From: Candidatus Sulfotelmatobacter sp.
Lineage (GTDB): Bacteria > Acidobacteriota > Terriglobia > Terriglobales > Acidobacteriaceae
NCBI GenBank assembly: GCA_035266345.1
Contig: DATFNP010000042.1
Location: 9,660-73,659 of the forward strand
DNA length: 64,000 nucleotides
Reading direction: 5' to 3'
Shown: positions 2,105 through 56,327 of the stretch, one piece after another
Layout: each line of letters begins with the position of its first letter
Numbering within the stretch: position 1 is the first letter of the stretch
Notes under the pieces: generated by a model
Databases searched by the model: none
What the model saw: only the letters and a program-made list of their open reading frames with translations
Told to the model about the DNA's origin: nothing
Translations under genes and position numbers: made by a program

Positions 2105-3670
2105 CTATGAGCCGAGCGTCCTTTCGATGTATCTTTCTGGACTTGGTGAAACATCTACCAGTTTCGCCAGCGTCTGCCAGTGCCTCGGATGCGGGCGATA
2201 TCCCTCGCGGATGCGGCCACCGTACCAGCGAGACACTGAGATTTGTCGAGCGATAGCACGTGCTGAGGTCGAGGCGAGGAGTGGTTGAATCTTTTCCGAA
2301 AAGAATTTCTCTGTCAGCCACGCTGGCTGGTCGGACGACTTCCATGAGTGTTGCGCTAAAGCGTTCTTACGTTGAGTGATCGCACGCTTCAACTGGGCTT
2401 CAGGACCATTCGCCGTTTGGCGACCAATCCGCGCGGCATCGAGCATGTTCTTGGTGGCATCCCCAAGGGAGCAGCTGACACAGGTGGTACTGCGGTCTTG
2501 AATAGTTTTCCCGCAGCCGGGACAAATATTTTCCCGCCGGGGTGCCTTAATCGCGGATGGTAGTGGCGGTGCACCCTTTGCTTCTCGCTTGAAACGCTGC
2601 GTTAGCCGCGTAGGCGGCGCAGACTCACGAGCGAGCCTGGCTGAACTCGACCAGAGCGCACGAGCAATCCACTCCGCGAATGGCGCGACCGCACGAGCCC
2701 ACATCGGAGCTGTCTGCGAAAGTTGACAAGCGAAGGATGCGGTCAGCCGAGTGTTCCCATTTCCTAGCTCAAGAAACCATTCTCGCTTAAGCGGTTCGCG
2801 TGTGATCCAATCAAGCAAGTAAGCGTCCACGCGTGCGCGACTTGGCTCCATCAGGTCGCACGCCAAACTGTCGCGCGCAGTTGTGTCCACATGCAGAACA
2901 CCCAAGCCTGGGTCTAGTCCCAGACAAGCCGCTGCAAGACGAGCTTCGGATTCCAGCAGGCAATACAGAAAGTTAAGAATTGCGTTTGCGGGATTTGCGG
3001 CAAGCCGGGGTGATCCCGTCAGCGGAGAGACCCGCGCTCCGAAGCTCTGCCAATGAGCGGGAATTCGTCCAACCTCATTCTTCGGGAAGTTGACAGGTAG
3101 TGTGCTCCACGCCGACCAATAGGATCGGGCGGCTTGTGACTCGATCAACCGGATAGTCGTGATGCTCTCGGCGGCTGGCAATTCCGCCATGAATTGAGCA
3201 ATCTTGTCAGCGGCAGAGGTGTCCAAGAGTTTGTAACGCGCAACCTGTGCCTGCCCTGCGAGCTTCTGGCTGATTAGTTCTCGCGCGATTCGCAGCGCGG
3301 CGCCGGATGAAAGCGCAAGGGCTTGGGCTCGCCGGAGTTTGGCATCCGAAGGGCGGACCGGCCCGGTGACGGCGAGCACCTTACCATCACGTTCAAGCAT
3401 CGCAAAACTTGCATCCTGATCGGCGAGCCAGCGCAGCGCGGCCAGTGATATGAACCCGTCTGAGCCAATGCAGACCAAACGCCTCAGCCCGTGTCCGACG
3501 CGGGCGAGCCTGATCTTGCGGCGCTCCGGCCCGATGCCATCTTCGATTTCCAAGTGGCCGGACTGCATCCGCACCTTGATTCCGAAACCAGTGAGCGTGA
3601 GAACGCCACTTCTGCCAATGAGGGATTTACGGGATACGTTGTGTTGCGGTAGGGTGCCTGAAGCTGCCAT
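2105..3670 (-). CDS. cas1: Cas1-family integrase (casposase-like) with C-terminal Zn-ribbon and HTH extension
   Basis: 521 aa. Cas1 signatures: IESQAARSYW (catalytic E), NPANAILNFLY, GLDPGLGVLHVD (H), SLACDLMEPSRARVD (D/E). C-terminus carries CPGC..CVSC and an HTH-like ARQISVSRWYGGRIREG. Confidence 0.9.
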   Translation of the reverse strand: MAASGTLPQHNVSRKSLIGRSGVLTLTGFGIKVRMQSGHLEIEDGIGPERRKIRLARVGHGLRRLVCIGSDGFISLAALRWLADQDASFAMLERDGKVLAVTGPVRPSDAKLRRAQALALSSGAALRIARELISQKLAGQAQVARYKLLDTSAADKIAQFMAELPAAESITTIRLIESQAARSYWSAWSTLPVNFPKNEVGRIPAHWQSFGARVSPLTGSPRLAANPANAILNFLYCLLESEARLAAACLGLDPGLGVLHVDTTARDSLACDLMEPSRARVDAYLLDWITREPLKREWFLELGNGNTRLTASFACQLSQTAPMWARAVAPFAEWIARALWSSSARLARESAPPTRLTQRFKREAKGAPPLPSAIKAPRRENICPGCGKTIQDRSTTCVSCSLGDATKNMLDAARIGRQTANGPEAQLKRAITQRKNALAQHSWKSSDQPAWLTEKFFSEKIQPLLASTSARAIARQISVSRWYGGRIREGYRPHPRHWQTLAKLVDVSPSPERYIERTLGS

Positions 3671-3747
3671 TGGAGCTCATACCTCCGTGGTAGTTAGGGT
3701 CTGTCGGCTGCTTCGAACAGTCCGGCAGGCCCGCTTCCTTCAATGAA

Positions 3748-4542
3748 CTAATTTGGATTCCGCAATTTGTACCTTCGTCTGGTCCGTTGACGTGTGGGCG
3801 TAGCCCTGCGCGACTGCACGAACACCTCTTCGGGTCTAAGAGATCCGACCAGATTGATGGCTGTACGTGCTTTAACCCCGAAGAGCGCGCCCGCGAGGGC
3901 CCGAGACAGAAACCAGAATTGCTTGTACCGAGTCGAGGGGCGTGCTGACACATCGCAGCGCGGGAAACGGGGATCACGCAACGCATCCACATATTGCTCC
4001 GCGAACTCAGACAAATAACCGGGCAGCGTACTGCCTGGAAGCATGGGCCAAGCCGGAAACTGCTCAACATCTTGGAAACCCCCAGGCTCAATCTCGACTG
4101 TTCGACTCATGAAGGCTTCTTTACAAATATCGCGCACTCGCTCGGGAGTCGTTTTGGGGTCTAGCAAAGAGTTGATTACCTCCGGCTCACCGGGGAACCT
4201 CAGTTCCTCCCTAGCTTCTTCTGCTATACAACGTCGTAACCAATCTCGCGTGACCGGAATCTCGGCATCTTCTATTTCTCGGAGCCTGGTTTCCCTCTGA
4301 GCCTGCGCCAACACACCAGCGCGAATCTCATTCCCAATGATCTCCTCGCGGTGCTGTCTCGTTTCTTCCTTTAGTTGAGCATCCGTTTTCCGGTCCAACT
4401 CTGCTTCTAACTGCTTCTGCTTTAGCCTATTGATCCGCCATCGGGGCATTCCCTCGGCAATCCTCCGAAAGTCCCAATAGAACTGATGGGCGAACGTGTA
4501 GAGCGTTTCTGAGTCTACTTTTGTTGGTCTTCCAGCTCCCAT
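3748..4542 (-). CDS. Conserved element protein of unknown function (264 aa), paralogue of 10391-11158
   Basis: Shared blocks with 10391-11158: N-terminal MGAGRPTKVD..FAHQFYWDFRRIAEG and C-terminal LRDPRFPRCDVSARPSTRYKQFWFLSRALAGALFGV..TAINLVGSLRPEE. It lies immediately upstream of cas1. Confidence 0.75.
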   Translation of the reverse strand: MGAGRPTKVDSETLYTFAHQFYWDFRRIAEGMPRWRINRLKQKQLEAELDRKTDAQLKEETRQHREEIIGNEIRAGVLAQAQRETRLREIEDAEIPVTRDWLRRCIAEEAREELRFPGEPEVINSLLDPKTTPERVRDICKEAFMSRTVEIEPGGFQDVEQFPAWPMLPGSTLPGYLSEFAEQYVDALRDPRFPRCDVSARPSTRYKQFWFLSRALAGALFGVKARTAINLVGSLRPEEVFVQSRRATPTRQRTRRRYKLRNPN

Positions 4543-4662
4543 AATTAAAGGGCAAAAGCTATTTTAGATTTCTTGAAGCTCTTAGGTTACATCCTCTATA
4601 ACTGCCTACAGTATGCACGTTGACTGCTTGTTACGCAAGGGGCAATAACAGGAGGCACCAGG
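4543..4662. promoter_or_regulatory. Divergent control region of the left module, with two AAGGG(G)CAA motifs
   Basis: AAAGGGCAAAA at 4547-4557 and CAAGGGGCAATAA at 4636-4648. The same motif pair is conserved in the right-copy intergenic region while the spacer is diverged. AGGAGG precedes the ATG at 4663. Confidence 0.45.
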
Positions 4663-4899
4663 ATGCACCGAGATGAAACCGTAGTAGCCGTTGGGATGTC
4701 CGAAGCGGCCCGGAGGTTGGGCCTGTCCACTCGCACCGTGGCCACGCTTGTCCTGCGGAACGAGCTTCCGAGCCGAAAGGTGGGCCGCCGGAGAATTATT
4801 CCGGTTATGGCATTGGAGGCCTTCGTTAGGAGTGATCACGGGTCTGGCTGCCTCGGGCCAGCTGCAGCTGCTGAAGGAGAAACTGGCAGAACGGCGTAA
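4663..4899 (+). CDS. Excisionase-family helix-turn-helix DNA-binding protein
   Basis: MSEAARRLGLSTRTVATLVLRNELPSRKVGRRRIIPVMALEAFV matches the Xis/MerR-type HTH pattern (..G.S..T...L...G.LP..K.GRR..I....L..F). Paralogue at 10047-10268. Confidence 0.85.
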   Translation: MHRDETVVAVGMSEAARRLGLSTRTVATLVLRNELPSRKVGRRRIIPVMALEAFVRSDHGSGCLGPAAAAEGETGRTA

Positions 4900-4904
4900 A
4901 AACC

Positions 4905-5459
4905 ATGCCGCACAAACGAAAGCGGCAGGCGGAAACCTCGTCCAGGGGCAGCCGCTCAGCCGCTAAGAACAAAAAACGCTTCAACATTAGTGTCTCGCGT
5001 CACGATGCATCGCGCAAGCGCATTACTGCGTTTGAACTCGTGAGACTTCGACGCCAGGGTCTTGCCTGGAGGGATATTGAAAAACAGTCGGGCATCACTC
5101 GCCGAACAGCAAAGCTTCTTCTCCCACGTGCTTTTTTCCATGACGAGCGTGGCCAGCTTCAGGTGCGTGGGTATGACCGGTATACCCGCACACTGAAAAT
5201 CCCCACGGCTAAGCCAGGGGAATTTAGGTGGCTGCGCGCTCGCGGGAGCCGCCAAGCAAGCCTTGTGGGTGCGTGGAACAACGCAGTCAAGGCCGCGGGG
5301 CGGGGCGATTTCTCACTTATAGATGCCTTTCCGCGCAATATCTTCATAGACGGAGTGCGTCTCGCAACCTCCCATTACGAGGTTTCACGTATCGCTGCGG
5401 CTGCTGCGGAGAGCGATCAGCCGTTCGAGGATCTGTACGCCCTGGCAGGTGCGGTGTAA
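4905..5459 (+). CDS. Conserved element protein of unknown function (184 aa, basic N-terminus, internal HTH-like segment)
   Basis: Same position as 9405-10031 in the other copy, with weak similarity by eye. Basic N-terminus: MPHKRKRQ. HTH-like segment: LAWRDIEKQSGITRRTAKLLL. Confidence 0.65.
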   Translation: MPHKRKRQAETSSRGSRSAAKNKKRFNISVSRHDASRKRITAFELVRLRRQGLAWRDIEKQSGITRRTAKLLLPRAFFHDERGQLQVRGYDRYTRTLKIPTAKPGEFRWLRARGSRQASLVGAWNNAVKAAGRGDFSLIDAFPRNIFIDGVRLATSHYEVSRIAAAAAESDQPFEDLYALAGAV

Positions 5460-5461
5460 CT

Positions 5462-5737
5462 GTGCGCAAACGATGCACACTTTGCGACAGGCCAGCCACA
5501 GAATGGCATCACGTCGGCGGCCGAAATCACTGCAGTTGGTTTCGTGTTCCGCTGTGCACTCTCCATCATCAGCTGGTAACCAGAGCCTATTACAATGCCG
5601 ACCCTGACATGATGAAACCGGCGTCGAACCTTGAGCAGCGGATCAAACGCGCTCGTGAAGGATGCCATGTCTTTTTGTGGTTACTGGATCACCCGGAGGT
5701 AATTGATCCGGAGAAGATTTTGGGAGGTAACGTATGA
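5462..5737 (+). CDS. Small HNH-like zinc-finger protein
   Basis: GTG start in frame. CTLCDRPATEWHHVGGRNHCSWFRVPLCTLHH fits CxxC..HH..G.N..LC..H. Its stop overlaps the polB-fragment start (ATGA at 5734-5737). Paralogue at 9115-9408. Confidence 0.7.
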   Translation: MRKRCTLCDRPATEWHHVGGRNHCSWFRVPLCTLHHQLVTRAYYNADPDMMKPASNLEQRIKRAREGCHVFLWLLDHPEVIDPEKILGGNV

Positions 5738-6477
5738 TTCCTGATCGCTTGCCAATCTTTCTTCGGGCGCACACGGTCAAAGTGCAGAGGCAGCCCAAAG
5801 CTCCATCGAAGAAAGATAGCGCGATGCCTCCACGCTGGCCAGAGCGCGCCCTGCTGTTCGACACTGAGACCCGCACTTCCATTGATCAGACGTTGATGTT
5901 CGGAGTCTACCGTATCTGCAATCTGATCGACGGACAGTACCGTTGCAGCGAAGAGGGTCTCGTCTATGATGAACGACTTTCCAAACAGGAACTCAACACC
6001 ATAGGGACTTTCGTGGCAAACAGTTTTCCCGACATCGAGCTGCCTTGCTTCCCGCCCAAGATACGGTTGCGAGTACATCGCTCGTTCCCCGAATTCATGG
6101 AACACGTGTTCTTTCCCGCGCTGCGTAAGGGATGGCTGATCGTGGGCTTCAACTTGCCATTCGATCTAAGCCGTCTCAGCCTCGATTGGCGGACGCACAA
6201 TGGGGGATTCGCCCTCATTTTTTCAAAGACGTGGTGGAGAAAAACTCAATGTTGGGTTGCGAATCCCTATCGGCCGCCGATCATCCTCGAAGCGAAAGAC
6301 GCGCGGACAGTATTCATGTCTCGTGGCTCAACGAAACGTCCGGCGGAATGGCCGAACGAAGCCAGACTCCTCGACATCGGAACATTGTTATTTTCGCTGT
6401 TCGATCAACATTGCAGTCTGCGCGATTGGTGGTGCCGGATATATTCCTCGATCATGTGCCCGTACGTGAGAGGGTGA
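5734..6477 (+). pseudogene. Family B DNA polymerase, N-terminal (exonuclease domain) fragment
   Basis: Aligns with aa ~40-290 of the 901-aa PolB (LLFDTETRTSIDQTLMFGVYR; VGFNLPFDLSRLSLDW; LLDIGTLLFSLFDQHCSLRD). Homology ends at ~6425-6430. The remainder is antisense to the other polB. Confidence 0.8.
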
Positions 6478-9110
6478 AAACCAGGATCGTCCATCCGGTA
6501 ACGTCGATATCGGCCGCGCCGATCCCGATTGTGAATATCGACACCTTCGAGACTGCGCCACTCGTCTTGCTTGCTCGAAAATGGCACAATCACCATGGGT
6601 TTGTGATCGGGTTTGTTATCAAAATCGAAATCGAATGAGTACGCCTCGGAAGTCATCACCATGAACATGAAATTGTGGGGACGTGCACCCTCCCACATCT
6701 CCAGCATCTTGAACACGTTCCAAGTCGATACGGAGAAGCGCATCATCTCCGGAAGTGAAGCCCAATCCGGTCGTGTGCGTTCTAATCCCAGAAATTCGCG
6801 CACGATGTAATCCCACATCTCGTAAACCCACAGTGGCGCGTCTTTTCTCCAATTTCCCGGGTTGTCTTTTGGGGGATAGAGAAAGCCGATTCCGTGCGCT
6901 TTGGGATTGACGATTTTTGTATCTGTTAATTTCCCGCGTCTGTTCAATACCTTTTCAAGTAGCGCGTATCTTTTGGCTGCTATGCCCACACCCCACAACT
7001 GCCGACGCACCTTTTTCTTCGCGTTGCAGTTGCATCCGCGCACCTCACAAACTCCGGCTTCATCATGCTCGGTTTTGAGTTCATGCGAACATTTGCACAC
7101 GTAATTGTCATCTGTGAGATTCAGTAGGTCCTGCACTACGTCCGGGTCGTACGGATTGAGCGCCTGGAACTTGGCAGTAATTCGGTCAACGTCATCCCAG
7201 GTCAAAATACGTTTACCCTGCGCGCCGGGGGTACGCAGCGTGCCGCCATTCTTCGATGCCACAATCGCCAAACTGTCGGTGTCGCAGTATAGATATGTTC
7301 CTCCGGCTCGCGTCACTTCGACCTCTAGCATCGCGAGCAAAAGCCTTCCGGCGGACGTGATGAGAGTTGCCAGGTAGGGCGCGAGCCACTTTCCCCGTTT
7401 TTCGATTACGCAGGAAGAATCAGGGAAACACTCATCACCGGAGAACACCATCACGCGCCTGGGTTGCTTGAAATGCTCTGGAATCAACTCCACAAAGAAC
7501 CCGTAGATCGAATTGGCCAGGATCTTCAACCAGTAGTAGAGATCGGCATCATCCTTGTTGCGTTTGCGTTCCTCGATAATCTTTGTGAAGAGGTCAACCG
7601 AATCATCATTAGGATCAATCAGGACTTTGCCGCGTAGTCTTACGGCTCTCATCCCCGGCTGCTTTCCGGAGGGCACAATGCGGAATGCCTGTTGAATCTT
7701 GGGAATCTTGCCGGGTTGCTGAACCACTGCGGCCACGAGGTCGGGGCCAGCCATGTAGACGGGTTCGGGATGAGCTGGGTTCGGATGCAAGTAGTTGTTG
7801 CCGATGTTATGGGTCACACCATCGTAGACAGTCCGGATGGGCAGGATGTCCCCATCAGGCAATACGCGGGCCACAAAGTTGAGATTGCGCCATGTGTCAC
7901 GCCGGAAGCATCTTTCCATAGTGATAGTCGCAACGAGGCGCTTTACGTTTTCCGTATCATCGACAAAGTCCAAACGCTCAGCCGTCAAGAATTTAAACAG
8001 CCCAAGGTTTGCACAACAGGATGGATACTCGGAGGTGTAATCAACAGGGGCCACGGGCACAACTTCGTGGCGGATTCGGCATTCGGAGCGACCGCCGTAG
8101 TAGCTCTGCATCCAACACCCAAGCTTTTCGTTGGGCACCTTGAACTTGACCTCAGGTCGTTCGATCCCCATTGCCTTCAGGTACGCTTTGGCAATACTCG
8201 CAGGTGAATAGGCATTCCAAGGCTTCAAATCTAGATCGGCATGCCTGTCAAATTCCTGCTTACAGGCGTTCAGCAATGCAATCGTGCAGCGGACATCCTG
8301 ACGGCAGTGTTCAATTTCCTCAGGTGTGACTCCGCCACTCGGATCATGATCATCTTTCTGGGGTAGGTTCTGCCCTTTGAAAGGACCGCCTTTGTTGTCA
8401 CAGGCAGTCCTAAGCGAGTGCGACTTGTTGTAAAGCACCCAGAGCAAGGTCCGAAGGTCGAGAAAGTGGATGTTTCTACCTGCGTCCTTCCACTCGTGTT
8501 GATTCTTCTTCCAAGGTCGCCACAGCTTGATTATCTGTTTCTTGCTGTCTATTGGTGTGATCAGGATGCGGGGATAATTGCAATTTTCGGGGCCGTCGGC
8601 ATATTGCATCAGCACGAGCGACCATTCGCCCTTATTCCCGTCCGTCCAGTCCAGGGTGATCCGCGTGAGATCGTAGCCGAGATTAAAGCCGACCACCATG
8701 GAACCGTCTCGCTTCAGCGCGGGCCAGAGTACCTTCTCCATGAACTGGGTGCGCGAGTAAAGCGGGAAGCGGGGAGGAAATGACGGTACATCGGAGACCG
8801 CCGTCTCCGTGTAAGTTTTGAGAACTTTGAGATCTTTCACGGGCAGGTCGTCAGCATGGAAAATCCCCTCTTCGATGACCTCATATTTCTGTCCGACTAG
8901 CTTGCTGCAGCGCCGCCATACGCCAAAGGTGAGTGACTGATCTACTGTGACCCGGCTTTCGGTATCGAACGCGAGGATGTCCGGCCACTTGGGTTCGCCC
9001 AGGGCATTGTTCTCCCCTTCGGTATTGGCGGTCTTTTTCTTCTTTTTCTTTCTCTCTATCGGTACGGCAAGAGCGCGCAAAAAGAGATCGTGAGTCTCAA
9101 TCATTTCCAA
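6405..9110 (-). CDS. polB: Family B DNA polymerase (3'-5' exonuclease plus polymerase domains)
   Basis: 901 aa. Motifs: Exo I AFDTES; Exo II VGFNLGYDLTRI; motif A VDYTSEYPS; motif B KILANSIYGFF; motif C YCDTDSLAIV; KxY IAAKRYALL. Confidence 0.92.
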   Translation of the reverse strand: MEMIETHDLFLRALAVPIERKKKKKKTANTEGENNALGEPKWPDILAFDTESRVTVDQSLTFGVWRRCSKLVGQKYEVIEEGIFHADDLPVKDLKVLKTYTETAVSDVPSFPPRFPLYSRTQFMEKVLWPALKRDGSMVVGFNLGYDLTRITLDWTDGNKGEWSLVLMQYADGPENCNYPRILITPIDSKKQIIKLWRPWKKNQHEWKDAGRNIHFLDLRTLLWVLYNKSHSLRTACDNKGGPFKGQNLPQKDDHDPSGGVTPEEIEHCRQDVRCTIALLNACKQEFDRHADLDLKPWNAYSPASIAKAYLKAMGIERPEVKFKVPNEKLGCWMQSYYGGRSECRIRHEVVPVAPVDYTSEYPSCCANLGLFKFLTAERLDFVDDTENVKRLVATITMERCFRRDTWRNLNFVARVLPDGDILPIRTVYDGVTHNIGNNYLHPNPAHPEPVYMAGPDLVAAVVQQPGKIPKIQQAFRIVPSGKQPGMRAVRLRGKVLIDPNDDSVDLFTKIIEERKRNKDDADLYYWLKILANSIYGFFVELIPEHFKQPRRVMVFSGDECFPDSSCVIEKRGKWLAPYLATLITSAGRLLLAMLEVEVTRAGGTYLYCDTDSLAIVASKNGGTLRTPGAQGKRILTWDDVDRITAKFQALNPYDPDVVQDLLNLTDDNYVCKCSHELKTEHDEAGVCEVRGCNCNAKKKVRRQLWGVGIAAKRYALLEKVLNRRGKLTDTKIVNPKAHGIGFLYPPKDNPGNWRKDAPLWVYEMWDYIVREFLGLERTRPDWASLPEMMRFSVSTWNVFKMLEMWEGARPHNFMFMVMTSEAYSFDFDFDNKPDHKPMVIVPFSSKQDEWRSLEGVDIHNRDRRGRYRRYRMDDPGFHPLTYGHMIEEYIRHHQSRRLQC

Positions 9111-9114
9111 TCCC

Positions 9115-9408
9115 TCATTTCGAGTTGCCCTCTAGTGCTTTTTCTTTCTCGATGTCTGAAGCAATTTCCTTTTCGAGCATGTCAAGCAGCATCCACATGA
9201 ACAGAACCGTCATCTTCAGGGCACGGATGAGCCTGTGAAAGCGATTCGGAGTGGAGCGTAGATCAATTCCGGCAGCCCGCTGTCTCGCATGGAAAATTAC
9301 TTGACACCTGGCGCAGAGCGACATGGTGAACCATGCAATGAAATTCTGCCCCCCGACGTGATGCTGCGTCACATCACAGGTGCTACCGCAGAGATTGCAC
9401 CGTCTCAT
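9115..9408 (-). CDS. Small HNH-like zinc-finger protein
   Basis: CNLCGSTCDVTQHHVGGQNFIAWFTMSLCARCQVIFH fits CxxC..HH..G.N..LCxxC..H. Its start overlaps the stop of 9405-10031. Confidence 0.8.
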   Translation of the reverse strand: MRRCNLCGSTCDVTQHHVGGQNFIAWFTMSLCARCQVIFHARQRAAGIDLRSTPNRFHRLIRALKMTVLFMWMLLDMLEKEIASDIEKEKALEGNSK

Positions 9409-10031
9409 GCGGCACCCCCGAAGTACGGGATGACCTGTTCACTACCGAAATGTTCGGGGAGATTGTCTTGCTCGCCCAACCTCCGAAGGGTTTTCGGGTC
9501 GGTCAGAAGCTCGTACCCTTGGACCGTTACGCCTCGCCATTTATCAAGCGCAGTAAGATCGCCTCTTTGAAAACGGAAGACATCGTTGCGGAAACGTGCA
9601 ATCTCGTTCCTGGCCTTTGAGCCTTCGATTTTGATTATGATTGGACCACTCGGGCCGGGAACTTCCATCCGGCGGACATAACGATCAGCGATGGCGCGGA
9701 TTCTGCCGTTCCTGTCCTTTTTGAATGCCTTGGGTATGTATTTCCAAAAGTCGCGGGTCGTGACGCCTCGGCCCTCTGCAGCTTGCGAAGCCGTGAGCTT
9801 GTGGTCGCGCAACATATCCGCATGCGCCGCCAGTGCATCCCCACGTTTCCTTAGCTCCGCCGGAGAGAGTAACCATGGGCGAGGCGCGCGATAGTGCTTA
9901 GAAACTGCGGCCGTGGCACGAGCAATTTCACCCGCGCGCGCAGATCGCGCTAAACTTGAGTTGATTGGTTTAGTTTTTCTGGCCCCCGGTAGCCTGGCGC
10001 GGCGAGCCTGGGACCTTCTTTTTGACGGCAT
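9405..10031 (-). CDS. Conserved element protein of unknown function (208 aa, basic N-terminus)
   Basis: Positional counterpart of 4905-5459, translationally coupled to the HNH-like gene. N-terminus: MPSKRRSQARRAR. Confidence 0.7.
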   Translation of the reverse strand: MPSKRRSQARRARLPGARKTKPINSSLARSARAGEIARATAAVSKHYRAPRPWLLSPAELRKRGDALAAHADMLRDHKLTASQAAEGRGVTTRDFWKYIPKAFKKDRNGRIRAIADRYVRRMEVPGPSGPIIIKIEGSKARNEIARFRNDVFRFQRGDLTALDKWRGVTVQGYELLTDPKTLRRLGEQDNLPEHFGSEQVIPYFGGAA

Positions 10032-10046
10032 TGGCTCACCCCGCGC

Positions 10047-10268
10047 TCATGCTGTTTCCCTCAAAGCTGCTGCTCTAGTGCGACCAGGCCCATGGTTGGC
10101 TTGTACGAAAGCCTCCAAAGCCACAACGGGGATAATCCGTCGGCGACCTACCTTGCGGCTTGGTAGCTCCCGCCGCAGAACAAGAGTCGCTACTGTTCGA
10201 GCGGACAGCCCCAACCGCCGGGCTGCCTCAACCATCCCCACCGCAAGCACAGTTTCATCTCGGTGCAT
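10047..10268 (-). CDS. Excisionase-family helix-turn-helix DNA-binding protein
   Basis: MHRDETVLAVGMVEAARRLGLSARTVATLVLRRELPSRKVGRRRIIPVVALEAFV is nearly identical to the 4663-4899 product. Confidence 0.85.
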   Translation of the reverse strand: MHRDETVLAVGMVEAARRLGLSARTVATLVLRRELPSRKVGRRRIIPVVALEAFVQANHGPGRTRAAALRETA

Positions 10269-10390
10269 CTTCGAGCCTCCTATTTATTGCCCTTGCAGTG
10301 GCTAACCAGCAAGGCGCATAATATAGTTGTGTTGTACGGGATGATGACAATCACGGTCAATGATAGAGAAGCAGTTTTTGCCCTTTAATT
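10269..10390. promoter_or_regulatory. Divergent control region of the right module, with two TTGCCCTT motifs
   Basis: TTATTGCCCTTG at 10284-10295 and TTTTGCCCTTT at 10376-10386, the reverse complement of the motifs in 4543-4662. Confidence 0.45.
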
Positions 10391-11158
10391 ATGGGAGCCG
10401 GTAGACCACAAAAAGCCGACCCTGGATCGGTCTACGCGTTCGCGCACCAGTTTTATTGGGATTTCCGGAGGATCGCCGAGGGGAATCTTCGGTGGACACT
10501 GGACAGGGTAAAGCTTCGACAGTCGACCATCGAGCTTGAGAACTTGAACATCCCCGCAGAGGCAGCCAAGAAAGCTGAGGAAGAAATTCAAGCTGGTCTC
10601 TTAGAAGCATCCAAAAAGCAGGAACGGTGCCGGGAGCTGGAGGATCAACTCTCCTCAACACGGCCACTGTGGTCCCGTATCGTAAGAGAGGATGCTATGA
10701 AGGAAGTCAGGATACCGGGTGAACCCGGAGTCCTTAAGGAATTGCTGGACCCGGCAACGACTCCGGAGCGGATACGAGAGGTCTGCAGAGAAGCAGTCAT
10801 GACTAGGAAGGTTGAAGTTGAACCCGGCGTGCAGAAGGAAATAGAAGTAGAGGCCTGGCCCATTCCTCCAGGCAGTCCATTTCCCACATATTTGTCTCAG
10901 TACGCAGAACAGTACGTTGCTGCCTTGCACGACCCGCGTTTCCCTCGCTGTAATGTTTCAATCCGCCCGTCGACCCGACTGAAGCAATTCTGGTTTCTAT
11001 CTCGCGCCCTCGCGGGTGCGCTTTTCGGGGTTACCACACGCACAGCCATCAATCTGGTCGGCTCCCTCCGACCCGAAGAGATTTTCGAAGAATCTCGGGA
11101 TGCAAAACCGGCACGCAAACGGGTGAGGCGAAAATACAAATCGCGGCCCGCAAGCTAA
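10391..11158 (+). CDS. Conserved element protein of unknown function (255 aa), paralogue of 3748-4542
   Basis: MGAGRPQKADPGSVYAFAHQFYWDFRRIAEG ... LHDPRFPRCNVSIRPSTRLKQFWFLSRALAGALFGVTTRTAINLVGSLRPEE. Confidence 0.8.
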   Translation: MGAGRPQKADPGSVYAFAHQFYWDFRRIAEGNLRWTLDRVKLRQSTIELENLNIPAEAAKKAEEEIQAGLLEASKKQERCRELEDQLSSTRPLWSRIVREDAMKEVRIPGEPGVLKELLDPATTPERIREVCREAVMTRKVEVEPGVQKEIEVEAWPIPPGSPFPTYLSQYAEQYVAALHDPRFPRCNVSIRPSTRLKQFWFLSRALAGALFGVTTRTAINLVGSLRPEEIFEESRDAKPARKRVRRKYKSRPAS

Positions 11159-11236
11159 GCTTCTTGAAGTAAAACGGGCCTGCCGACTGTTAGTAGCAGC
11201 CGACAAGCCCTGACCACCACAGGAGGCATTACTCCA

Positions 11237-12763
11237 ATGGCAGCTTCGCCCACGCTACCGCACTCGCACGCCCTCCGCAAATCTGGCGTCCTGGTCTTGA
11301 ATGGCTATGGCATCCGCGTCCAGGTGAACGCCGGTCATTTGCTCTTGCATGATGGGATAGCCGACGACCGCTGCACCATCCGCCTGCCCCGTGTAAACCA
11401 TGGTCTGAAAAGGTTGGTGCTGATCGGGAGCGACGGTTTCATTACGCTAGAAGCCCTGCGCTGGCTGGCTGATCAGGACGCGAGTTTCGTGATGCTTGAC
11501 CGCAGAGGCAAGGTGCTTGCCGTTACTGGTCCTGTTTCTCCATCGGATGCCAAGCTCCGCCGAGCACAGGCGCTCGCAATCGGCAACGGGACGGCGCTCA
11601 AGATTTCCAAGGAACTCATCTCCCAAAAGCTCGCCGGGCAGGAGCTACTCGTGCGGGATATGCTGCATGATTCCGCGGCAGCAGACGCAATTGCTCGATT
11701 CAAGGATGAACTACAAAGCGCGGAAGGTATAGAAGTCGTGCGGCTGATCGAAGCGCAGGCTGCGCGCTGCTATTGGCAATCGTGGGCTAACATACCGATT
11801 CACTGGCCGCGCAAGGACGAGCGCCGTGTGCCGGAACATTGGAAGCGATTTGGTTCCCGCATCTCACCCTTGACCCACAGTCCACGCCTTGCGGCCAACC
11901 CGCCGAATGCCTTGAGCAACCTGATCTATTCGATCCTGGAGGCGGAATCGAGACTAGCTGCATCGGCGATGGGCCTTGATCCCGGCATCGGCTTGCTCCA
12001 CGTGGACACCCCCAACAGGGATTCTCTCGCCTGTGACATCATGGAGCCGATACGCGCGAAGTGTGATGCCTTTGTTCTTGATTGGCTTCAGCGAGAGCCG
12101 CTCCGCCGCTCCGACTTTTGGGAGGACCGTAATGGGAACTGCCGCATTGCGTCACCGTTGGCCATCAAGCTCTGCGAGACTTCGGACACGTGGCGCAAAC
12201 TAGTAGCTCCGGTAGCAGAATATGTCGCGCAAGAGATTTGGTCCTCCGCGTCCAAACCAAGTTCCGTATCCAAGATTGCTCGACAATTGATCGCAACTCG
12301 CCTTACGCAGCGCTACAAACGCGAAGCAAAAGGTGGCGACCTACCAAAAGTTGGCCAGCCTAAACCCGAACATGTTTGCAGCGATTGCGGAGTCAAGATT
12401 CCAGTCGATGGGCAGCGCTGCTGGAAATGCTCAAAGCGGGTTACGGGTGTCAACTTCAAAGCCGGGCGTAAGTGCGCACAGCAACCGGAGCACCTAGCAA
12501 AGCGGGCAGCCACCATGCGGCGGCACAAGCAGGCCATTCGAAATTGGAAACCCTCAGACCTCCCGGCGTGGCTCACCCGCGATGTCTACCTAAAGCGGAT
12601 TCAGCCCGCGCTTGCCAGCGTCGCGAAGGCGCAAATCGGCGCCCTGCTGGGCGTAAGCGAGCCGTACTCATCGGACATTCAGGCGGGCAGGCGTATTCCG
12701 CATCCGAGGCACTGGCAGGCGCTGGCCCAACTGGTCGGTCTTCCGCCTGGCGGTGCTCATTGA
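11237..12763 (+). CDS. cas1: Cas1-family integrase (casposase-like) with C-terminal Zn-ribbon and HTH extension
   Basis: 508 aa. Signatures: IEAQAARCYW, NPPNALSNLIY, GLDPGIGLLHVD, SLACDIMEPIRAKCD. C-terminus carries CSDC..CWKC and the HTH-like IGALLGVSEPYSSDIQAG. Roughly two-thirds identical by eye to 2105-3670. Confidence 0.92.
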   Translation: MAASPTLPHSHALRKSGVLVLNGYGIRVQVNAGHLLLHDGIADDRCTIRLPRVNHGLKRLVLIGSDGFITLEALRWLADQDASFVMLDRRGKVLAVTGPVSPSDAKLRRAQALAIGNGTALKISKELISQKLAGQELLVRDMLHDSAAADAIARFKDELQSAEGIEVVRLIEAQAARCYWQSWANIPIHWPRKDERRVPEHWKRFGSRISPLTHSPRLAANPPNALSNLIYSILEAESRLAASAMGLDPGIGLLHVDTPNRDSLACDIMEPIRAKCDAFVLDWLQREPLRRSDFWEDRNGNCRIASPLAIKLCETSDTWRKLVAPVAEYVAQEIWSSASKPSSVSKIARQLIATRLTQRYKREAKGGDLPKVGQPKPEHVCSDCGVKIPVDGQRCWKCSKRVTGVNFKAGRKCAQQPEHLAKRAATMRRHKQAIRNWKPSDLPAWLTRDVYLKRIQPALASVAKAQIGALLGVSEPYSSDIQAGRRIPHPRHWQALAQLVGLPPGGAH

Positions 12764-51335: not shown

Positions 51336-52256
51336 ATGACGGACCTTCGCATGGCGCGTGTGCTGGTCAGTGGGGTTTCCGGGCCGATCGGAGCGGCGCT
51401 GCTTCCCTCGCTAAAATCGAGTGGGGCGCTGGTTGCGCGACTGGTGCGGGCTGGTTCGACACTTGGGCCCGCCGGAGGCGACGAACGGATTCCGTGGGAT
51501 CCGGCGCAGCCAATCTCTCCCGACGCGGTTTCCGGGTTCGATGCCGTGATTCACCTCGCTGGGGAAAGCATCGTCGGGCGGTGGAGTCCGGCGAAGAAAA
51601 CGAAGATTCGCGACAGCCGGGTCGTGGGCACTCGCAACCTGGCGCACGCTTTGGCGCAGGCAAAAGATAAACCGCGGGTGTTCGTCTGCAGTTCGGCGAT
51701 CGGGTATTACGGCGACCGTGGCGACGAGGTTTTGCGCGAAGAAAGCGCAGCGGGTACAGGATTCCTTCCCGAAGTCTGCCGCGAGTGGGAGGCGGCGACG
51801 CGGCCGGCAGCCGATGCCGGCATCCGCACCGTGCAACTCCGCACCGGGGTTGTTCTCAGCCCCAAGGGCGGCGCGCTCGGAAAGATGCTCATGCCGTTCA
51901 AACTGGGGGTCGGCGGCAGGATCGGAAACGGGCGGCAGTGGATGAGCTGGATTGATGTGCAGGACATGGTGGGCGCGATTCATCACATCCTGAAAACCGA
52001 TCTGCTGCAAGGCCCCGTGAATATGGTCGCGCCCAAGCCTGTGACCAACTCCGATTTCACGAACACGCTGGCCGGCGTGCTCTCGCGTCCGGCCATCTTT
52101 CCCGTGCCCGCCTTCGCCGTGAAACTGGCTTTCGGCGAAATGGGAGAGACGGTATTGTTGGGCAGCCAGCGCGTCGAACCGGCACAATTGGTCGGTTCCG
52201 GTTACCCCTTCTGTTTCCGCGATTTGCGAGCCTCGCTCGATAACCTTCTGAAGTAA
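51336..52256 (+). CDS. TIGR01777/YfcH-type NAD-dependent epimerase family protein (DUF1731 C-terminus)
   Basis: VLVSGVSGPIGAAL Rossmann motif. RVVGTRNLA. C-terminal LGSQRVEPAQL..GYPFCF. Confidence 0.85.
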   Translation: MTDLRMARVLVSGVSGPIGAALLPSLKSSGALVARLVRAGSTLGPAGGDERIPWDPAQPISPDAVSGFDAVIHLAGESIVGRWSPAKKTKIRDSRVVGTRNLAHALAQAKDKPRVFVCSSAIGYYGDRGDEVLREESAAGTGFLPEVCREWEAATRPAADAGIRTVQLRTGVVLSPKGGALGKMLMPFKLGVGGRIGNGRQWMSWIDVQDMVGAIHHILKTDLLQGPVNMVAPKPVTNSDFTNTLAGVLSRPAIFPVPAFAVKLAFGEMGETVLLGSQRVEPAQLVGSGYPFCFRDLRASLDNLLK

Positions 52257-52361: not shown

Positions 52362-52775
52362 ATGAGAAACAGACTCATCGCCGCCATTGTACTGGCCTCG
52401 CTGGCATGCGGGAACCTCCCGCTGGCCCTGGCGGTTTCCCATCGGTCTCCATCGCAGGAACTCGCTTCGCACTCTCATTCCCGCACGCAAGATCATTCCT
52501 GCTGTCCCAGAGTTCAGCCTCAGTTTGTGCCTTCAGGTTTTGCGAGAGTTATTCCCGGCATGCCATGCGGCGACGAGCATGCGTGCTGCACAAAGCAATT
52601 GCCCGGCAATACGCCCTCCCTGCCCGCATCCACTCGGATTCAACGGCCCGGCTCACAAGGTTTGACCGTGACCGCTCACGCCCAGGGTAGAAACAGCCTT
52701 GGGTCGATTTCGAGAACTGCGGGCGGCGATCCCATCCAATTTCACTCCGTGCGAAGTACGGTTCTCCGTATCTGA
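52362..52775 (+). CDS. Hypothetical secreted Cys/His-containing protein
   Basis: Signal peptide MRNRLIAAIVLASLACGNLPLALA. HSCCP and HACCT motifs. Lies upstream of the Cys-rich gene in the same orientation. Confidence 0.45.
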   Translation: MRNRLIAAIVLASLACGNLPLALAVSHRSPSQELASHSHSRTQDHSCCPRVQPQFVPSGFARVIPGMPCGDEHACCTKQLPGNTPSLPASTRIQRPGSQGLTVTAHAQGRNSLGSISRTAGGDPIQFHSVRSTVLRI

Positions 52776-52911
52776 GTTCTGCGCTCGCGCCCGAGGCGCA
52801 TTCCCTACCACAAAGCAGGCTGTTCTTGCTGGATTCGATGCCAGCCTGCTTTCGCGGCGTGCGCAAGCCCGCGAGATGAATTCAACCAAAAATTACGGAG
52901 ACTTGAAAATT

Positions 52912-53398
52912 ATGAAACACAAGATGATCGCCCTTATCCTGGCCCTGACCGTCATGTCCTGGGCCCAAACTACAACTCAAACCTCCCCAACCACGCCACA
53001 ACAGAGCACCACGCCTGCGGAAAAAGGTAAGTGTCCATGCTGTGACAAGATGTCCACAGCCGACGCCAAAGAAGGTCCTGCCTGCTGTGCGCATCACGCC
53101 GACAACGGCGCAGCCGGCAAGGAAGTAGCCTCATGCTGCACGGGTGAAGGTGCGAAGTCCTGCTGCGGCGGCAAAGACGCGAAATCCTGCATGCGGAACG
53201 GCAAGGACAAGGCCGCGTGCTGCTCGGATTGCAAGGATAAAACTGCAGCCGCCTGCTGCGCGGGCCTGCGGCAAAGAATGCGGCAAGAGTTGCTGCTCTT
53301 CGGCGAAAAACCACGAAAAGTCCGCGTCGAAATGCTGCGCTCACGAACTGCGAGCCGCCAACGAACTGCCCCATGGCTTCTCAGCATTCGGAAGGTAG
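52912..53398 (+). CDS. Secreted Cys-rich (CC-repeat) putative metal-binding protein. A continuous reading requires skipping 1 nt near 53261-53267.
   Basis: GGAG precedes the ATG at 52912. Signal peptide MKHKMIALILALTVMSWA. Cys motifs CPCC, ACC, SCC, SCCGG, ACCSDC, ACC in frame 0, then CGKECGKSCCSSAKNHEKSASKCC in frame +1, which ends at 53398 just before a strong terminator. Confidence 0.6.
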
Positions 53399-53413
53399 CA
53401 TGCGAAGTGCATA

Positions 53414-53441
53414 GGCCCCAGCTTTTGCTGGGGCCTTTTTT
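53414..53441 (+). terminator. Rho-independent terminator
   Basis: GGCCCCAGC-TTTT-GCTGGGGCC followed by TTTTTT. Confidence 0.8.
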
Positions 53442-53467
53442 CGATTCGGCGAATCACAGGAGTCCGA

Positions 53468-54067
53468 TTACTGGCTTAGCATCCCGTCCGGAGCACGCAC
53501 CGGCAGCGCGCAGACTGCTCCCTCGCTGAAATTTTCTCCCTCAATTCCGAAAGCATGATCGAACCGGGCGCGGTAATTTTCCCACGCGATCGCGGAGGTG
53601 AGTTCCACGAGTTCAGGCTCGGTGAATTGCTCGCGCAGGCGCGTGAACAACGCGTCCGGGATCTCCACCGGAGTCCGGGTCATGGCGTCGGCATACTCAA
53701 GGACCAGCCTATCCAGTTCGGAAAAGCTGAAATCGGAGCGGTAATGATTCAGATTGGCGATCTGCTCGGCCGAGATGCCGCTTGCCCTGCCCACGGCAGA
53801 GCCGATGTCAATTCAAAACGGGCACCCCACCAGGGTTGCAACGCGAAGCTGCGCCAACTCCTTCAGCTTGGAAGCGACCAGCTTGCTGCCCATCTGCGAT
53901 TGCTCCATCTGGCCATATCCCCACAAGACTCGGGGATGATGCGCGGTCACCTGGATGGGCATGATGACGTGGCCCAGCCGGCGCCGGGTCAAAGCGTAGA
54001 CCATCCCCACAAACAAGCGGCGGAGCAGACCACCCTGATTGCGGGGTGCGCCCGGGATGCGTGCCAT
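53468..54067 (-). CDS. Carboxymuconolactone decarboxylase/AhpD-family protein with in-frame TGA at the CxxC position (candidate selenoprotein, otherwise a nonsense pseudogene)
   Basis: ORFs 53813-54067 and 53468-53794 are in the same frame, separated by a single TGA (53813-53815). The joined sequence reads ..LRVATLVGCPF[TGA]IDIGSAVG.., matching the family pattern C-x-x-C-I-D-x-G-S. The total of 199 codons fits the family length. Confidence 0.7.
53784..53802 (-). promoter_or_regulatory. SECIS-like hairpin downstream of the in-frame UGA
   Basis: mRNA: UGA AUUGACAUCG GCUCUGCC-GUG-GGCAGGGC. An 8-bp stem (one G-U pair) starts 11 nt after the UGA, and the apical loop contains GU. Confidence 0.45.
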
Positions 54068-54092
54068 GGCGGACTCCTTATCAGAACTTGAT

Positions 54093-56327
54093 TCACTGCG
54101 GGTTGGGACGGTTCATTTCTTGCTGCAGTTTTTCGAGCAGCTGCGCCCGCTGCTCTGTGGTCAACTCCCGCTGCAGCTCTTCCAGGGCCAGGGCCACGAT
54201 GTGATAGTGGTGCGTACCTGCGAATCTGGGATCGGTGGTGATGTCGAGCCAGAGTTTGTGCATCAGTTCGACGTCCTGCGGGCGCATGCGCGGAGTGTGA
54301 GGTCCAAGGGCGTACTCGCGGGTGGTGCCGTCGGGGGCGCACACTTCCAGGACCAGGCGCGGACGGGGCTCCGGCAGGCGCTCCCACGCGTCGCCGGTCA
54401 GCTTGGCCTGCTCATCGGAGGTGAGCTTGTTGGAAAGCCCGCAGACCACGCGGCTGGAATCCAGGCGCTGCGCCGTGACCACAATAGCCTCGAATACATC
54501 CGTCGCGGGCACAACCAGCAACGAGATGGGCTTGCCTTCCTTCTCGGCCACGGCGACGGCGGCAGTGAAGAGTTCCTGTTCGTAATGGTCGAACACCTGG
54601 CTGGCATCCAGGACCGCACTGCCACTGAAACTATGTTCGCGATGGTACAGGCGGGCGCTCATGACCACAACGTCCTGCTTGCCCGTGTGGGTGTGGCCCA
54701 GCACATGCCGCAGGTAGTAAAGATTGCGGGGATCGCGCACCGCCACCAGGACGTTGCCGGGCCGCACTCCCATGGCGCCGCTGCCCAATTCCTGGTTGCT
54801 GTAAACTCTGAACTCGTCGAGCTGCTCGGGCTTGCCGTGACGCTCCCGGGTGACGTGGCGCTCGGAAAGCGTAAAGATCGTGAAGAACACACCGCTGAAA
54901 ATCAGCCCCGCGATAGTCGCTTCATACTTGGTAAACAGGTTGACCACCGCCGTGATCAGCAGCACCGCGGAGATGAGGACCAGTCCCACCGGGATCTCGG
55001 TCTTGCCGATGTGCAGGTTGCCCGGCACCTTCCACTCCCGGTTCCCCGGTTCGGTGAAACGCAGAACGAGCACCGCCAGCGATTTCATGGCGAAGCTCCA
55101 AATCACTCCGAAGGCGTAGAGCGCTGCCAGCACGTACACGTTGCCCAGGCTGAGGAAAATAGTCAGCAACTGCATGCAGACGATCAAGTTGATGATGCGG
55201 AAGCTGGTGCCGTAACGATGGTGCGGCTTCTGGAACCAACTGGTCAGCACACCGTCTTCGGCCACGCGATTCAAGACGCCATTCGCGCCCACGATGGATG
55301 TGTTCTGGGCGCCCGCCAGAATCAGCACCCCCACCAGCACCACGAACCCGTGAAACAGCAGTTTCAGGCTGGTCGGCCCCACCAGGTACATGGCAATGCC
55401 GCCGATGAGGTTGGCGAAGTAATCGGGGCGGACGTTGTCCGGAATGATCATCACCGCGAAGAACGAAACCAGCGAGGTGAACAGCAGGCTGTAAATGAAA
55501 ATCACCAGCCCGGTTTTCTCCAGGTTCTTCAACTTGGGATGTTCGATTTCGCGGTTGACCTGGGCCAGGGTCTCTTCGCCGCTCATGGCCAGCACGGAGT
55601 GCCCGAAACCGACGAACAAAATGATCCACGTGATGTGGCCGAACCAGGTTCCGTTGAGCCAGCCGAGCGACTCTTTATTGAGCGGAATTACGCCTGCATG
55701 CAGCGGGTTCGGGGGCAACTGAACCGGCGCCCGCAAAACCGTGATCGTGCACCAGATGATCAGAATCACCACCATTACGGTGGTGATCGCCATGATCTGT
55801 AACGCCTTCTGGCTGGATTCGTGGATGCCCTGCGTGTTCTTCCACCAGAAATAGATCACGATGATGACGGCCAGTCCCGCGGCGAAGTGGTCGTCAGAGA
55901 AATTCAGCGGGCGGTGGAGGACTACCCCAATGTCCTTGATGAACCCCGCCAGGTATTGTCCGGCGGAGACCGCGCTTATGGGACCCGTCAGAACGTAGTC
56001 GAAGAGCAGGGCGGAGACCGAGAACTTGGCCAGCGTTCCGCCCATGGCTTCTTTGACCACACGGTAAACGCCACCGCGGACGAACATGCTGCTGGACTCG
56101 ATGTAGAGCGCCCGCACGGCATAGCTGAACAGCATGACCGCGAGGATGAACCAGGGCGCGCTCTTCCCGATCACCTTCTCGGCATCGCCGCCGGCGTAGT
56201 AGGCCGAGGAAGCCAGGTCCGACAGAACGATGGCGGAAGCACGCCAAAACGAGATAAAGGTCAGCATCACCGTGGTGGCGACGAAGACCTTTACTGCCGG
56301 TTTTGTACTTCCAGGGAATGTAGCCAT
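54093..56327 (-). CDS. APC-superfamily permease fused to a C-terminal cytoplasmic universal-stress-protein-like domain
   Basis: 744 aa. About 12 TM segments in the N-terminal ~480 aa. C-terminal NVLVAVRDPRNLYYLRHVL ... SLLVVPATDVFEAIVVTAQRL is USP-like. Confidence 0.85.
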   Translation of the reverse strand: MATFPGSTKPAVKVFVATTVMLTFISFWRASAIVLSDLASSAYYAGGDAEKVIGKSAPWFILAVMLFSYAVRALYIESSSMFVRGGVYRVVKEAMGGTLAKFSVSALLFDYVLTGPISAVSAGQYLAGFIKDIGVVLHRPLNFSDDHFAAGLAVIIVIYFWWKNTQGIHESSQKALQIMAITTVMVVILIIWCTITVLRAPVQLPPNPLHAGVIPLNKESLGWLNGTWFGHITWIILFVGFGHSVLAMSGEETLAQVNREIEHPKLKNLEKTGLVIFIYSLLFTSLVSFFAVMIIPDNVRPDYFANLIGGIAMYLVGPTSLKLLFHGFVVLVGVLILAGAQNTSIVGANGVLNRVAEDGVLTSWFQKPHHRYGTSFRIINLIVCMQLLTIFLSLGNVYVLAALYAFGVIWSFAMKSLAVLVLRFTEPGNREWKVPGNLHIGKTEIPVGLVLISAVLLITAVVNLFTKYEATIAGLIFSGVFFTIFTLSERHVTRERHGKPEQLDEFRVYSNQELGSGAMGVRPGNVLVAVRDPRNLYYLRHVLGHTHTGKQDVVVMSARLYHREHSFSGSAVLDASQVFDHYEQELFTAAVAVAEKEGKPISLLVVPATDVFEAIVVTAQRLDSSRVVCGLSNKLTSDEQAKLTGDAWERLPEPRPRLVLEVCAPDGTTREYALGPHTPRMRPQDVELMHKLWLDITTDPRFAGTHHYHIVALALEELQRELTTEQRAQLLEKLQQEMNRPNPQ

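Follow-up and report, generated by a model that had tools for sequence, protein, structure and literature searches.

Does a TGA triplet inside the reading frame of a small bacterial redox protein end translation, or is it read as selenocysteine (Sec)? The question is raised by a locus in a stretch of 64,000 nucleotides from Candidatus Sulfotelmatobacter sp. (Acidobacteriota; contig DATFNP010000042.1), which was analysed over its full length and is called the window below. On its minus strand, the open reading frames (ORFs) 53813-54067 and 53468-53794 lie in one frame with TGA 53813-53815 between them, and this triplet is the sole in-frame interruption of a 199-codon gene that runs from 54067 to 53468. 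The shared frame and the joined length had been given in a preliminary description of this DNA, and the sequence bears out its coordinates. Around the interruption the joined product reads ...RVATLVGCPF[TGA]IDIGSAVGRASG..., with the motif GCPF-TGA-IDIGS. On comparative sequence evidence, we put at roughly 90% the probability that this TGA is a real selenocysteine codon, accompanied by an insertion hairpin, in a redox protein of the AhpD/carboxymuconolactone decarboxylase (CMD) fold. The region very probably holds one intact gene for a Sec-containing thiol/selenol oxidoreductase of that fold, with the following parts.

53468..54067, minus strand: putative selenoprotein coding sequence, with ATG at 54067-54065, TAA at 53470-53468 and the motif C82-P-F-U85; recognised from sequence and frame, the Pfam CMD and NF053654 matches and the ratio of nonsynonymous to synonymous substitution rates (dN/dS).
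53813..53815, minus strand: UGA codon 85, predicted to be read as Sec and equivalent to the second Cys of CxxC; TGA is invariant in orthologues and aligns with Cys in the homologues P0006, P0035 and P0039 and in the CxxC of 2gmy and 2ijc.
53822..53824, minus strand: TGC codon of Cys82, the first residue of CxxU, invariant in three family alignments.
53784..53802, minus strand: hairpin resembling a selenocysteine insertion sequence (SECIS), with the 5' arm at 53802-53795 (GCUCUGCC), the loop GUG at 53794-53792 and the 3' arm at 53791-53784 (GGCAGGGC).

Profile searches place the joined protein in the Pfam family CMD (PF02627; 30 bits against a gathering score of 23, E 5.3e-7) and in TIGR00778 (ahpD_dom; 29.3 against a cutoff of 27.8). 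Its best NCBIfam match, over the full length, is NF053654, a model of YciW-related (seleno)proteins (E 5.5e-35). In alignments with PDB sequences, GC-P-F-[TGA] pairs with GC-A-F-C of Atu0492 (2gmy) and GC-A-Y-C of PA0269 (2ijc), which puts the TGA exactly at the second Cys of CxxC. A redox-active Cys position had been proposed for this codon from the outset, and CMD/AhpD structures and Cys-containing homologues agree with the proposal. Among Cys-type homologues, Cys in this column is at least 90% conserved. Cys82 is presumed to be the partner of U85 in a selenenylsulfide bond; both TGC and TGT encode it among orthologues, so this site is free of RNA-level constraint. A third Cys, Cys186, lies near the C-terminus and is invariant in the family alignments. 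For the structure, the 74%-identical Cys form P0006 stood in for the window protein. Its AlphaFold model (pLDDT 92, pTM 0.88) is all-helical, with a helix starting at residue 83, Cys82 directly before it and residue 85 in the first turn. Foldseek relates this model to AhpD and "peroxidase-related" structures and to the CMD-fold debrominase Bmp8, with best PDB TM-scores of 0.75-0.86. As modelled, the gene product is an AhpD-like CMD-fold protein with CxxU at the N-terminus of a helix.

The interrupted form of the gene is widespread. A search of 5.8 billion proteins returned close relatives of three kinds, namely full-length JGI proteins of 59-79% identity that read "CPFWIDIGS", many fragments of 109-117 residues that start right past the stop (e.g. 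"MDIGSAVGR..."), and full-length Cys forms, nearly all of them at 57% identity or less. In the DNA, the codon that the preliminary description had singled out for comparison is TGA in 80 of 80 loci from GTDB species representatives, whose products share 62-86% amino-acid identity with the window protein. It is also TGA in 118 of 118 distinct contexts among the matches listed from a metagenome pattern scan, which matched at least 120 contigs and looked for T[G/C]N at the codon (TGY and TCN also being permitted), followed by the hairpin. The 80 GTDB loci belong to Acidobacteriota (Ca. Sulfotelmatobacter, Ca. Acidoferrum and Terriglobia) except for two in metagenome-assembled genomes (MAGs) titled Candidatus Dormiibacterota and Candidatus Udaeobacter. 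TGA also occurs in six further metagenome loci, giving 86 of 86 TGA-type loci in total. The window itself is part of a 147.6-kb JGI contig, and the gene with the same TGA was independently assembled in two other samples. The identical sequence in three separate metagenome assemblies speaks against the sequencing error that had been considered in the preliminary description, and TGA is found in long-read MAGs too. Distant homologues, of ~55% identity and with a CEFC motif, have TGC at the codon.

Comparison of the orthologues indicates strong purifying selection on the sequence after the TGA. Over 1232 pairs, the median dN/dS is 0.07 for codons 97-189, compared with 0.11 for codons 2-84, and the 78 distinct genes contain no other stops or frameshifts. 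In 29 of these 78 there is no ATG, GTG or TTG within 14 codons after the TGA, so that independent initiation fails to explain the downstream conservation.

The candidate insertion signal is a stem-loop whose 8-bp stem has one G-U pair; 10 nt separate the UGA from the stem and 18 nt separate it from the loop. The stem length, the GU-containing loop and the position stand as they were in the preliminary description, except that the spacer had been counted as eleven nucleotides. The 45 nt after the UGA fold at -15.9 kcal/mol; because this single-sequence fold is insignificant (statistics below), it is not used as evidence, and the case for the hairpin is built on the comparison of orthologues. 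Across the 86 loci, the hairpin Ser codon is TCT without exception, although six synonymous codons are possible, and the Arg codon is AGA or AGG in 85 and never CGN. The Ala codon is GCC in 76, GCG in 9 and GCT in 1, and the Gly codon of the 3' arm is GGC in 74, the remaining 12 having AGC (Ser). The Val codon in the loop, by comparison, uses all four GTN triplets, and the flanking Ile and Asp codons vary freely. Among 62 conserved four- or six-fold degenerate columns, four of the five lowest synonymous entropies belong to hairpin codons. In an alignment of 82 sequences, 91% of the cells of the 8-bp helix are paired, against 35-45% with the partners slid. Pair 24-40, which links the last base of the Gly codon with the first one of the triplet that follows Arg, is C-G in 60 of these sequences, U-A in 8 and G-C in 3, and switches in at least three separate clades; this may be counted as covariation, though modest. 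Conservation of the hairpin, a point flagged for checking from the start, is therefore seen as strong synonymous-site constraint, with covariation in one pair only.

In the Acidoferrum-like clade the top pair is open and the loop is GGUCA, which resembles the GGUC loop of fdhF. Bacterial SECIS (bSECIS) elements are defined by a loop of 3-9 nt, a stem of 4-16 bp, a G in the first two loop positions, a spacing of 16-37 nt and a minimum free energy (MFE) of -7.5 kcal/mol or below (PMC13188914). All of these properties are found in 80 of the 82 distinct sequences, the window's own included, and the other two fall short on MFE only, in agreement with the position and shape that had suggested a SECIS element. 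The distant Cys homologues L096-L098 use TCA or TCG for the Ser and CGG or CGC for the Arg, and have no equivalent hairpin. The pattern among orthologues argues that the hairpin is maintained by RNA-level selection.

Two close relatives have another codon in place of the TGA. P0006 (L090-L092), the closest Cys form, has TGT (codon at L090 1886) together with the full hairpin and its TCT and AGA codons; its neighbourhood differs, with a short-chain dehydrogenase and a PALP enzyme. From its sequence it looks like a recent Sec-to-Cys conversion. P0022 (L093-L095), a Ser form of 59% identity, has TCA for TGA (codon at L093 10253) and keeps the hairpin (gggtctgccgtcggcagac). It was found on 7 contigs, including NCBI assembly GCA_041485165.1. 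Cytochrome, DinB and purine-catabolism genes are its neighbours, and the permease gene that precedes the window gene is missing; its lineage may have lost Sec decoding and retained the protein as a variant with a single Cys. A hairpin retained in both forms is the expected remnant of recent single-base conversions of TGA. The bases around the UGA are also nearly fixed: the codon before it (53816-53818, minus strand) is TTT in 75 of 78 distinct orthologues despite the synonymous TTC, and the base after it (53812, minus strand) is always A, which could reflect a context effect on Sec insertion or on termination efficiency.

Part of the decoding machinery was found in relatives. In three divergent Acidobacteriota MAGs, a selB gene lies 0.2-2 kb upstream of a TGA-containing orthologue (L081 2260-4317; L079 5804-7867; L078 7936-9108). 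The E. coli SelA, SelB and SelD sequences used in tblastn were approximate and served as a probe only, the selB matches being confirmed by NCBIfam (TIGR00475, 337-376 bits against a cutoff of 242). The L078 gene covers the first 344 of 581 model positions and may be truncated or frameshifted. These three related genomes show putative Sec decoding within the clade and, in some lineages, its physical linkage to the selenoprotein gene. In L081, an ORF for a TlpA/ResA-like thiol-disulfide oxidoreductase (1250-2200) precedes selB. A SelD-like match in L078 (16233-17222) turned out to be thiL. ARAGORN also called a 93-nt 'tRNA-Phe' with anticodon AAA in the window (51382-51474, plus strand); Rfam gives it no support, and its overlap with the start of an epimerase/DUF1731 gene makes a false positive likely, although irregular allo-tRNAs are known from Acidobacteria.

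Several observations weigh against reading the TGA as Sec. The 64-kb window contains no selA, selB, selD or tRNA-Sec gene, and the fetched loci hold no sel gene besides the three selB. ARAGORN found no tRNA-Sec in the window or in any fetched locus, the Rfam search of the window gave no tRNA-Sec family, and tblastn with the approximate E. coli queries gave no selA or selD in the same DNA. No Rfam family matches the hairpin, whether the whole window is searched at gathering thresholds or 53700-53900 at E up to 10. Judged by the window sequence alone, the hairpin does not stand out from its G+C-rich background (z = -1.19; 17 of 200 shuffles fold equally well). Five stem pairs are invariant or nearly so, and hence uninformative on covariation, which comes from pair 24-40 alone; this pair is broken in 11 of the 82 sequences. 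Several curated models of AhpD-type selenoproteins exist, and none of those tested reached its cutoff: NF053654 scores 120.7 bits where the curated equivalog cutoff is 310, and TIGR01926, a model of peroxidase-related enzymes, 27.4 bits where the cutoff is 81.8. Finally, the His of the AhpD motif CxxCxxxH is replaced by Gly, the window protein having CPF[U]IDIG where 2gmy has CAFCVDMH and 2ijc CAYCVNMH, so AhpD-type chemistry stays an analogy here. Conservation of this residue, Gly89, reaches at least 90% across the family and extends from the Sec to the Cys forms.

Recoding of the UGA through the same hairpin might also insert another residue, namely Cys by a tRNA(Cys) that mimics tRNA(Sec) and a SelB-like factor, or Trp or Cys by near-cognate suppression. 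Some bacteria do insert Cys at UGA by systems of the selC* tRNA(Cys)/SelB* kind, and unusual allo-tRNAs occur in Acidobacteria (PMC5389517); moreover, the inserted amino acid is not distinguishable from sequence data, and selA, selD and tRNA-Sec were not seen in the fetched DNA. The same study, however, reports no selC* in Acidobacteria, the phyla concerned being Firmicutes, Thermodesulfobacteria, Nitrospirae and Proteobacteria (PMC5389517), the selB genes next to the orthologues are ordinary equivalogs by their profile scores, and Sec in a CxxU motif is well established for AhpD-like proteins. A lineage that needed Cys could fix TGY as P0006 did, yet TGA is present in 198 of 198 sequences (118 of these among the matches listed), and we regard the insertion of a residue other than Sec as improbable. 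Far less weight still goes to a pseudogene, the alternative offered in the preliminary description. A change from TGC or TGT to TGA takes a single base, and gene callers do annotate two fragments, of 84 and 108-114 amino acids (aa); a nonsense mutation does not fit a TGA fixed in at least 80 species at 62-86% identity, a downstream dN/dS of 0.07 with no further stops or frameshifts, synonymous constraint on the hairpin codons, or a permease gene order kept in 66 of 78 loci.

A split gene, in which polypeptides of 84 aa and ~110 aa are made independently and assemble into the CMD fold, is just as hard to credit. It could draw on a GTG 6 codons past the TGA in the window and on the ATG directly after the TGA in 7 of 86 loci, starts of a kind that gene callers have used. 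Against it stand the 29 of 78 orthologues without a possible start within 14 codons and the 40 of 86 loci in which the Val codon is GTC, GTT or GTA. A break at this point would also divide the CxxC active site, where a helix begins in the model, and no conserved ribosome-binding site is possible because the sequence is fixed as a hairpin. The least credible account attributes the TGA to an error in sequencing or assembly, or reads it as a sense codon for Trp or Gly in an altered genetic code. JGI protein records of orthologues do have W at the UGA position, but this W is the code-4 translation of a real TGA on short contigs. Three independent assemblies agree on this TGA, which long-read MAGs show as well. 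In the window many ordinary ORFs, that of the neighbouring permease among them, end in TGA, and the residue at the position in homologues is Cys, not Trp or Gly. In our judgement, the conservation of the TGA, the selection downstream of it and the gaps in start codons together exclude a pseudogene, a split gene and a sequencing error for practical purposes, and the use of TGA as an ordinary stop in the window, together with Cys in homologues, does the same for a reassigned code.

Reading the TGA as Sec suggests the following mechanism. During translation, the hairpin 10 nt past UGA-85 would be bound by SelB carrying Sec-tRNA(Sec), as in established bacterial Sec insertion; selenocysteine would be inserted in place of termination, and the ribosome would go on for 114 more codons. 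In the product, which would contain C82-P-F-U85, the selenolate may, by analogy with AhpD, attack a peroxide, sulfenic acid, disulfide or other oxidised substrate. Cys82 would then resolve the adduct to give a selenenylsulfide, which a cellular reductant would recycle.

The gene lies downstream of a permease gene and faces a convergent ORF, and three further features belong to this context.

54074..54079, minus strand: Shine-Dalgarno-like AAGGAG, 6 nt 5' of the ATG and inside the 25-nt gap after the permease stop; read from the sequence, with a presumed function.
54093..56327, minus strand: gene for an APC-family amino-acid permease of 744 aa with a C-terminal extension (PF13520, E 1.3e-53), upstream of the selenoprotein gene.
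53413..53436, no strand assigned: G+C-rich 10-bp hairpin, 32 nt past the stop codon, followed by a T-run on the plus strand.

The ATG of the selenoprotein gene is 25 nt past the permease stop codon on the same strand, and the two genes are probably co-transcribed. In 66 of 78 GTDB loci the orthologue is preceded by a permease match, which the more divergent clade lacks. It is conceivable, although we think it unlikely, that the clade is a functionally distinct CMD-fold selenoenzyme without the His (C-P-F-U-I-D-I-G, with invariant Cys186) and not an AhpD-type peroxidase partner. In that case, given its probable co-transcription with the permease gene in Sulfotelmatobacter-like Acidobacteriota, it could act on the compound that the permease moves, e.g. 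an amino acid containing sulfur or selenium or, like Bmp8, an organohalide, and would be a lineage-defining selenoprotein of peatland Acidobacteriota.

The T-run on the plus strand suggests that the hairpin at 53413-53436 terminates the convergent gene, and termination may work in both directions. The convergent ORF (52699-53529, plus strand) extends past this candidate terminator and into the 3' end of the selenoprotein gene. It has a signal-peptide-like N-terminus and a very Cys-rich part at ~52999-53255 (KGKCPCCDK...ACCAHH...SCCTGEGAKSCCGG...CCSDCKDK). There is no Pfam match, relatives occur in 43 fetched sequences, and in L001-L004 a 133-aa gene is called at its position; its product may be a metal-binding protein.

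Elsewhere in the window, a scan for a second gene with an in-frame TGA and coding signal on both sides gave none, only antisense or out-of-frame artefacts. A casposon-like element occupies 2105-12763, in a region of low G+C at third codon positions (GC3). It contains two inverted Cas1 homologues (2105-3670, minus strand, PF01867 E 3e-41; 11237-12763, plus strand, E 1e-38), each paired with a paralogous ORF of 255-264 aa of unknown function. The pairs form a diverged inverted duplication of ~2.6 kb (2145-4826 against 10105-12747, 73-84% complementary) and flank an ORF of 901 aa (6405-9110, minus strand) with a borderline match to protein-primed family-B DNA polymerases (PF03175, 24.5 bits against a cutoff of 25.8). 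For an Acidobacteriota contig, a casposon-like element with a pair of Cas1 genes seems unusual.

Public records of the gene bear the mark of its TGA. The Trp at the Sec position of JGI/IMG records from short contigs (P0001-P0005, P0007, P0016 and others; L099 677-1270) is a genetic code 4 translation; for P0001, the DNA of the short contig carries TGA that was translated as W under code 4. On longer contigs the gene is called as two fragments, of 84 and ~110 residues. The Trp call and the split are a recurring annotation artefact for this selenoprotein family, and no NCBIfam selenoprotein model tested reaches its cutoff for the gene. A conserved selenoprotein of abundant soil and peat bacteria is thus mis-annotated in the gene calls seen. 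The sequence record would also add Sulfotelmatobacter- and Acidoferrum-like Acidobacteriota to the users of selenocysteine, its compact and very well conserved SECIS could seed a covariance model, and the family offers a clear example of Sec/Cys/Ser exchange at one site. Knowledge of selenoprotein families or of the decoding mechanism is unchanged; the main value lies in the correction of annotation and in the record of selenium use in peatland Acidobacteriota.

How does this gene compare with known systems? AhpD-like (COG2128/YciW) and CMD (PF02627) selenoproteins with CxxU were described from the Sargasso Sea in 2005 and are among the most abundant selenoproteins in Global Ocean Sampling (GOS) metagenomes (PMC1088965, PMC2398784, PMC9312934). 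The literature bears out the preliminary description, which counted AhpD-like proteins among the known bacterial selenoprotein families. Selenoproteins are also known in Acidobacteria (PMC1794560), and a 2026 review lists TIGR01926 as the model for the AhpD-like selenoprotein (PMC13188914). The window protein shares with the AhpD-like selenoproteins the CMD/AhpD fold, Sec in place of the second Cys of CxxC, a small downstream hairpin with an apical G, and widespread Cys-containing homologues. Those proteins are mostly marine, whereas the window clade is found in soil and peat Acidobacteriota (Ca. Sulfotelmatobacter, Ca. Acidoferrum). NF053654, 'GroundWater_YciW', whose name marks selenoprotein members, has the same architecture, residues 1-176 aligning to positions 1-172 of its 179-position profile; the score of 120.7 bits, far under 310, nevertheless indicates a sister clade and not a member.

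The hairpin can be set beside the SECIS of E. coli fdhF and the bSECISearch consensus, with which it shares a place in the coding region directly after the UGA, a distance of 17-18 nt from UGA to loop, a loop that starts G-U and a stem of 5-8 bp. It differs from the fdhF type in being very compact: most members have a loop of 3 nt, and there is no bulged U and no conserved lower stem. Among Cys-type CMD/AhpD proteins, comparison was made with P. aeruginosa PA0269/AhpD (2ijc, 2o4d, 7xw1), A. tumefaciens Atu0492 (2gmy) and D. radiodurans AhpD (6k40). These structures have the same all-helical fold (TM 0.63-0.86 to the P0006 model), and their GC-x-x-C aligns residue for residue, although identity to them is only 15-27% and the invariant Cys186 is an addition of the window family. 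Where PA0269 (2ijc, 7xw1) and Atu0492 (2gmy) have C-x-x-C-x-x-x-H, the window family has C-P-F-U/C-I-D-I-G, with Gly for His. Selenoproteins of the AhpD/CMD type with CxxU are therefore already known, and this gene represents a further clade of that kind, set apart by having Gly in place of the AhpD His and by its linkage to a permease gene.

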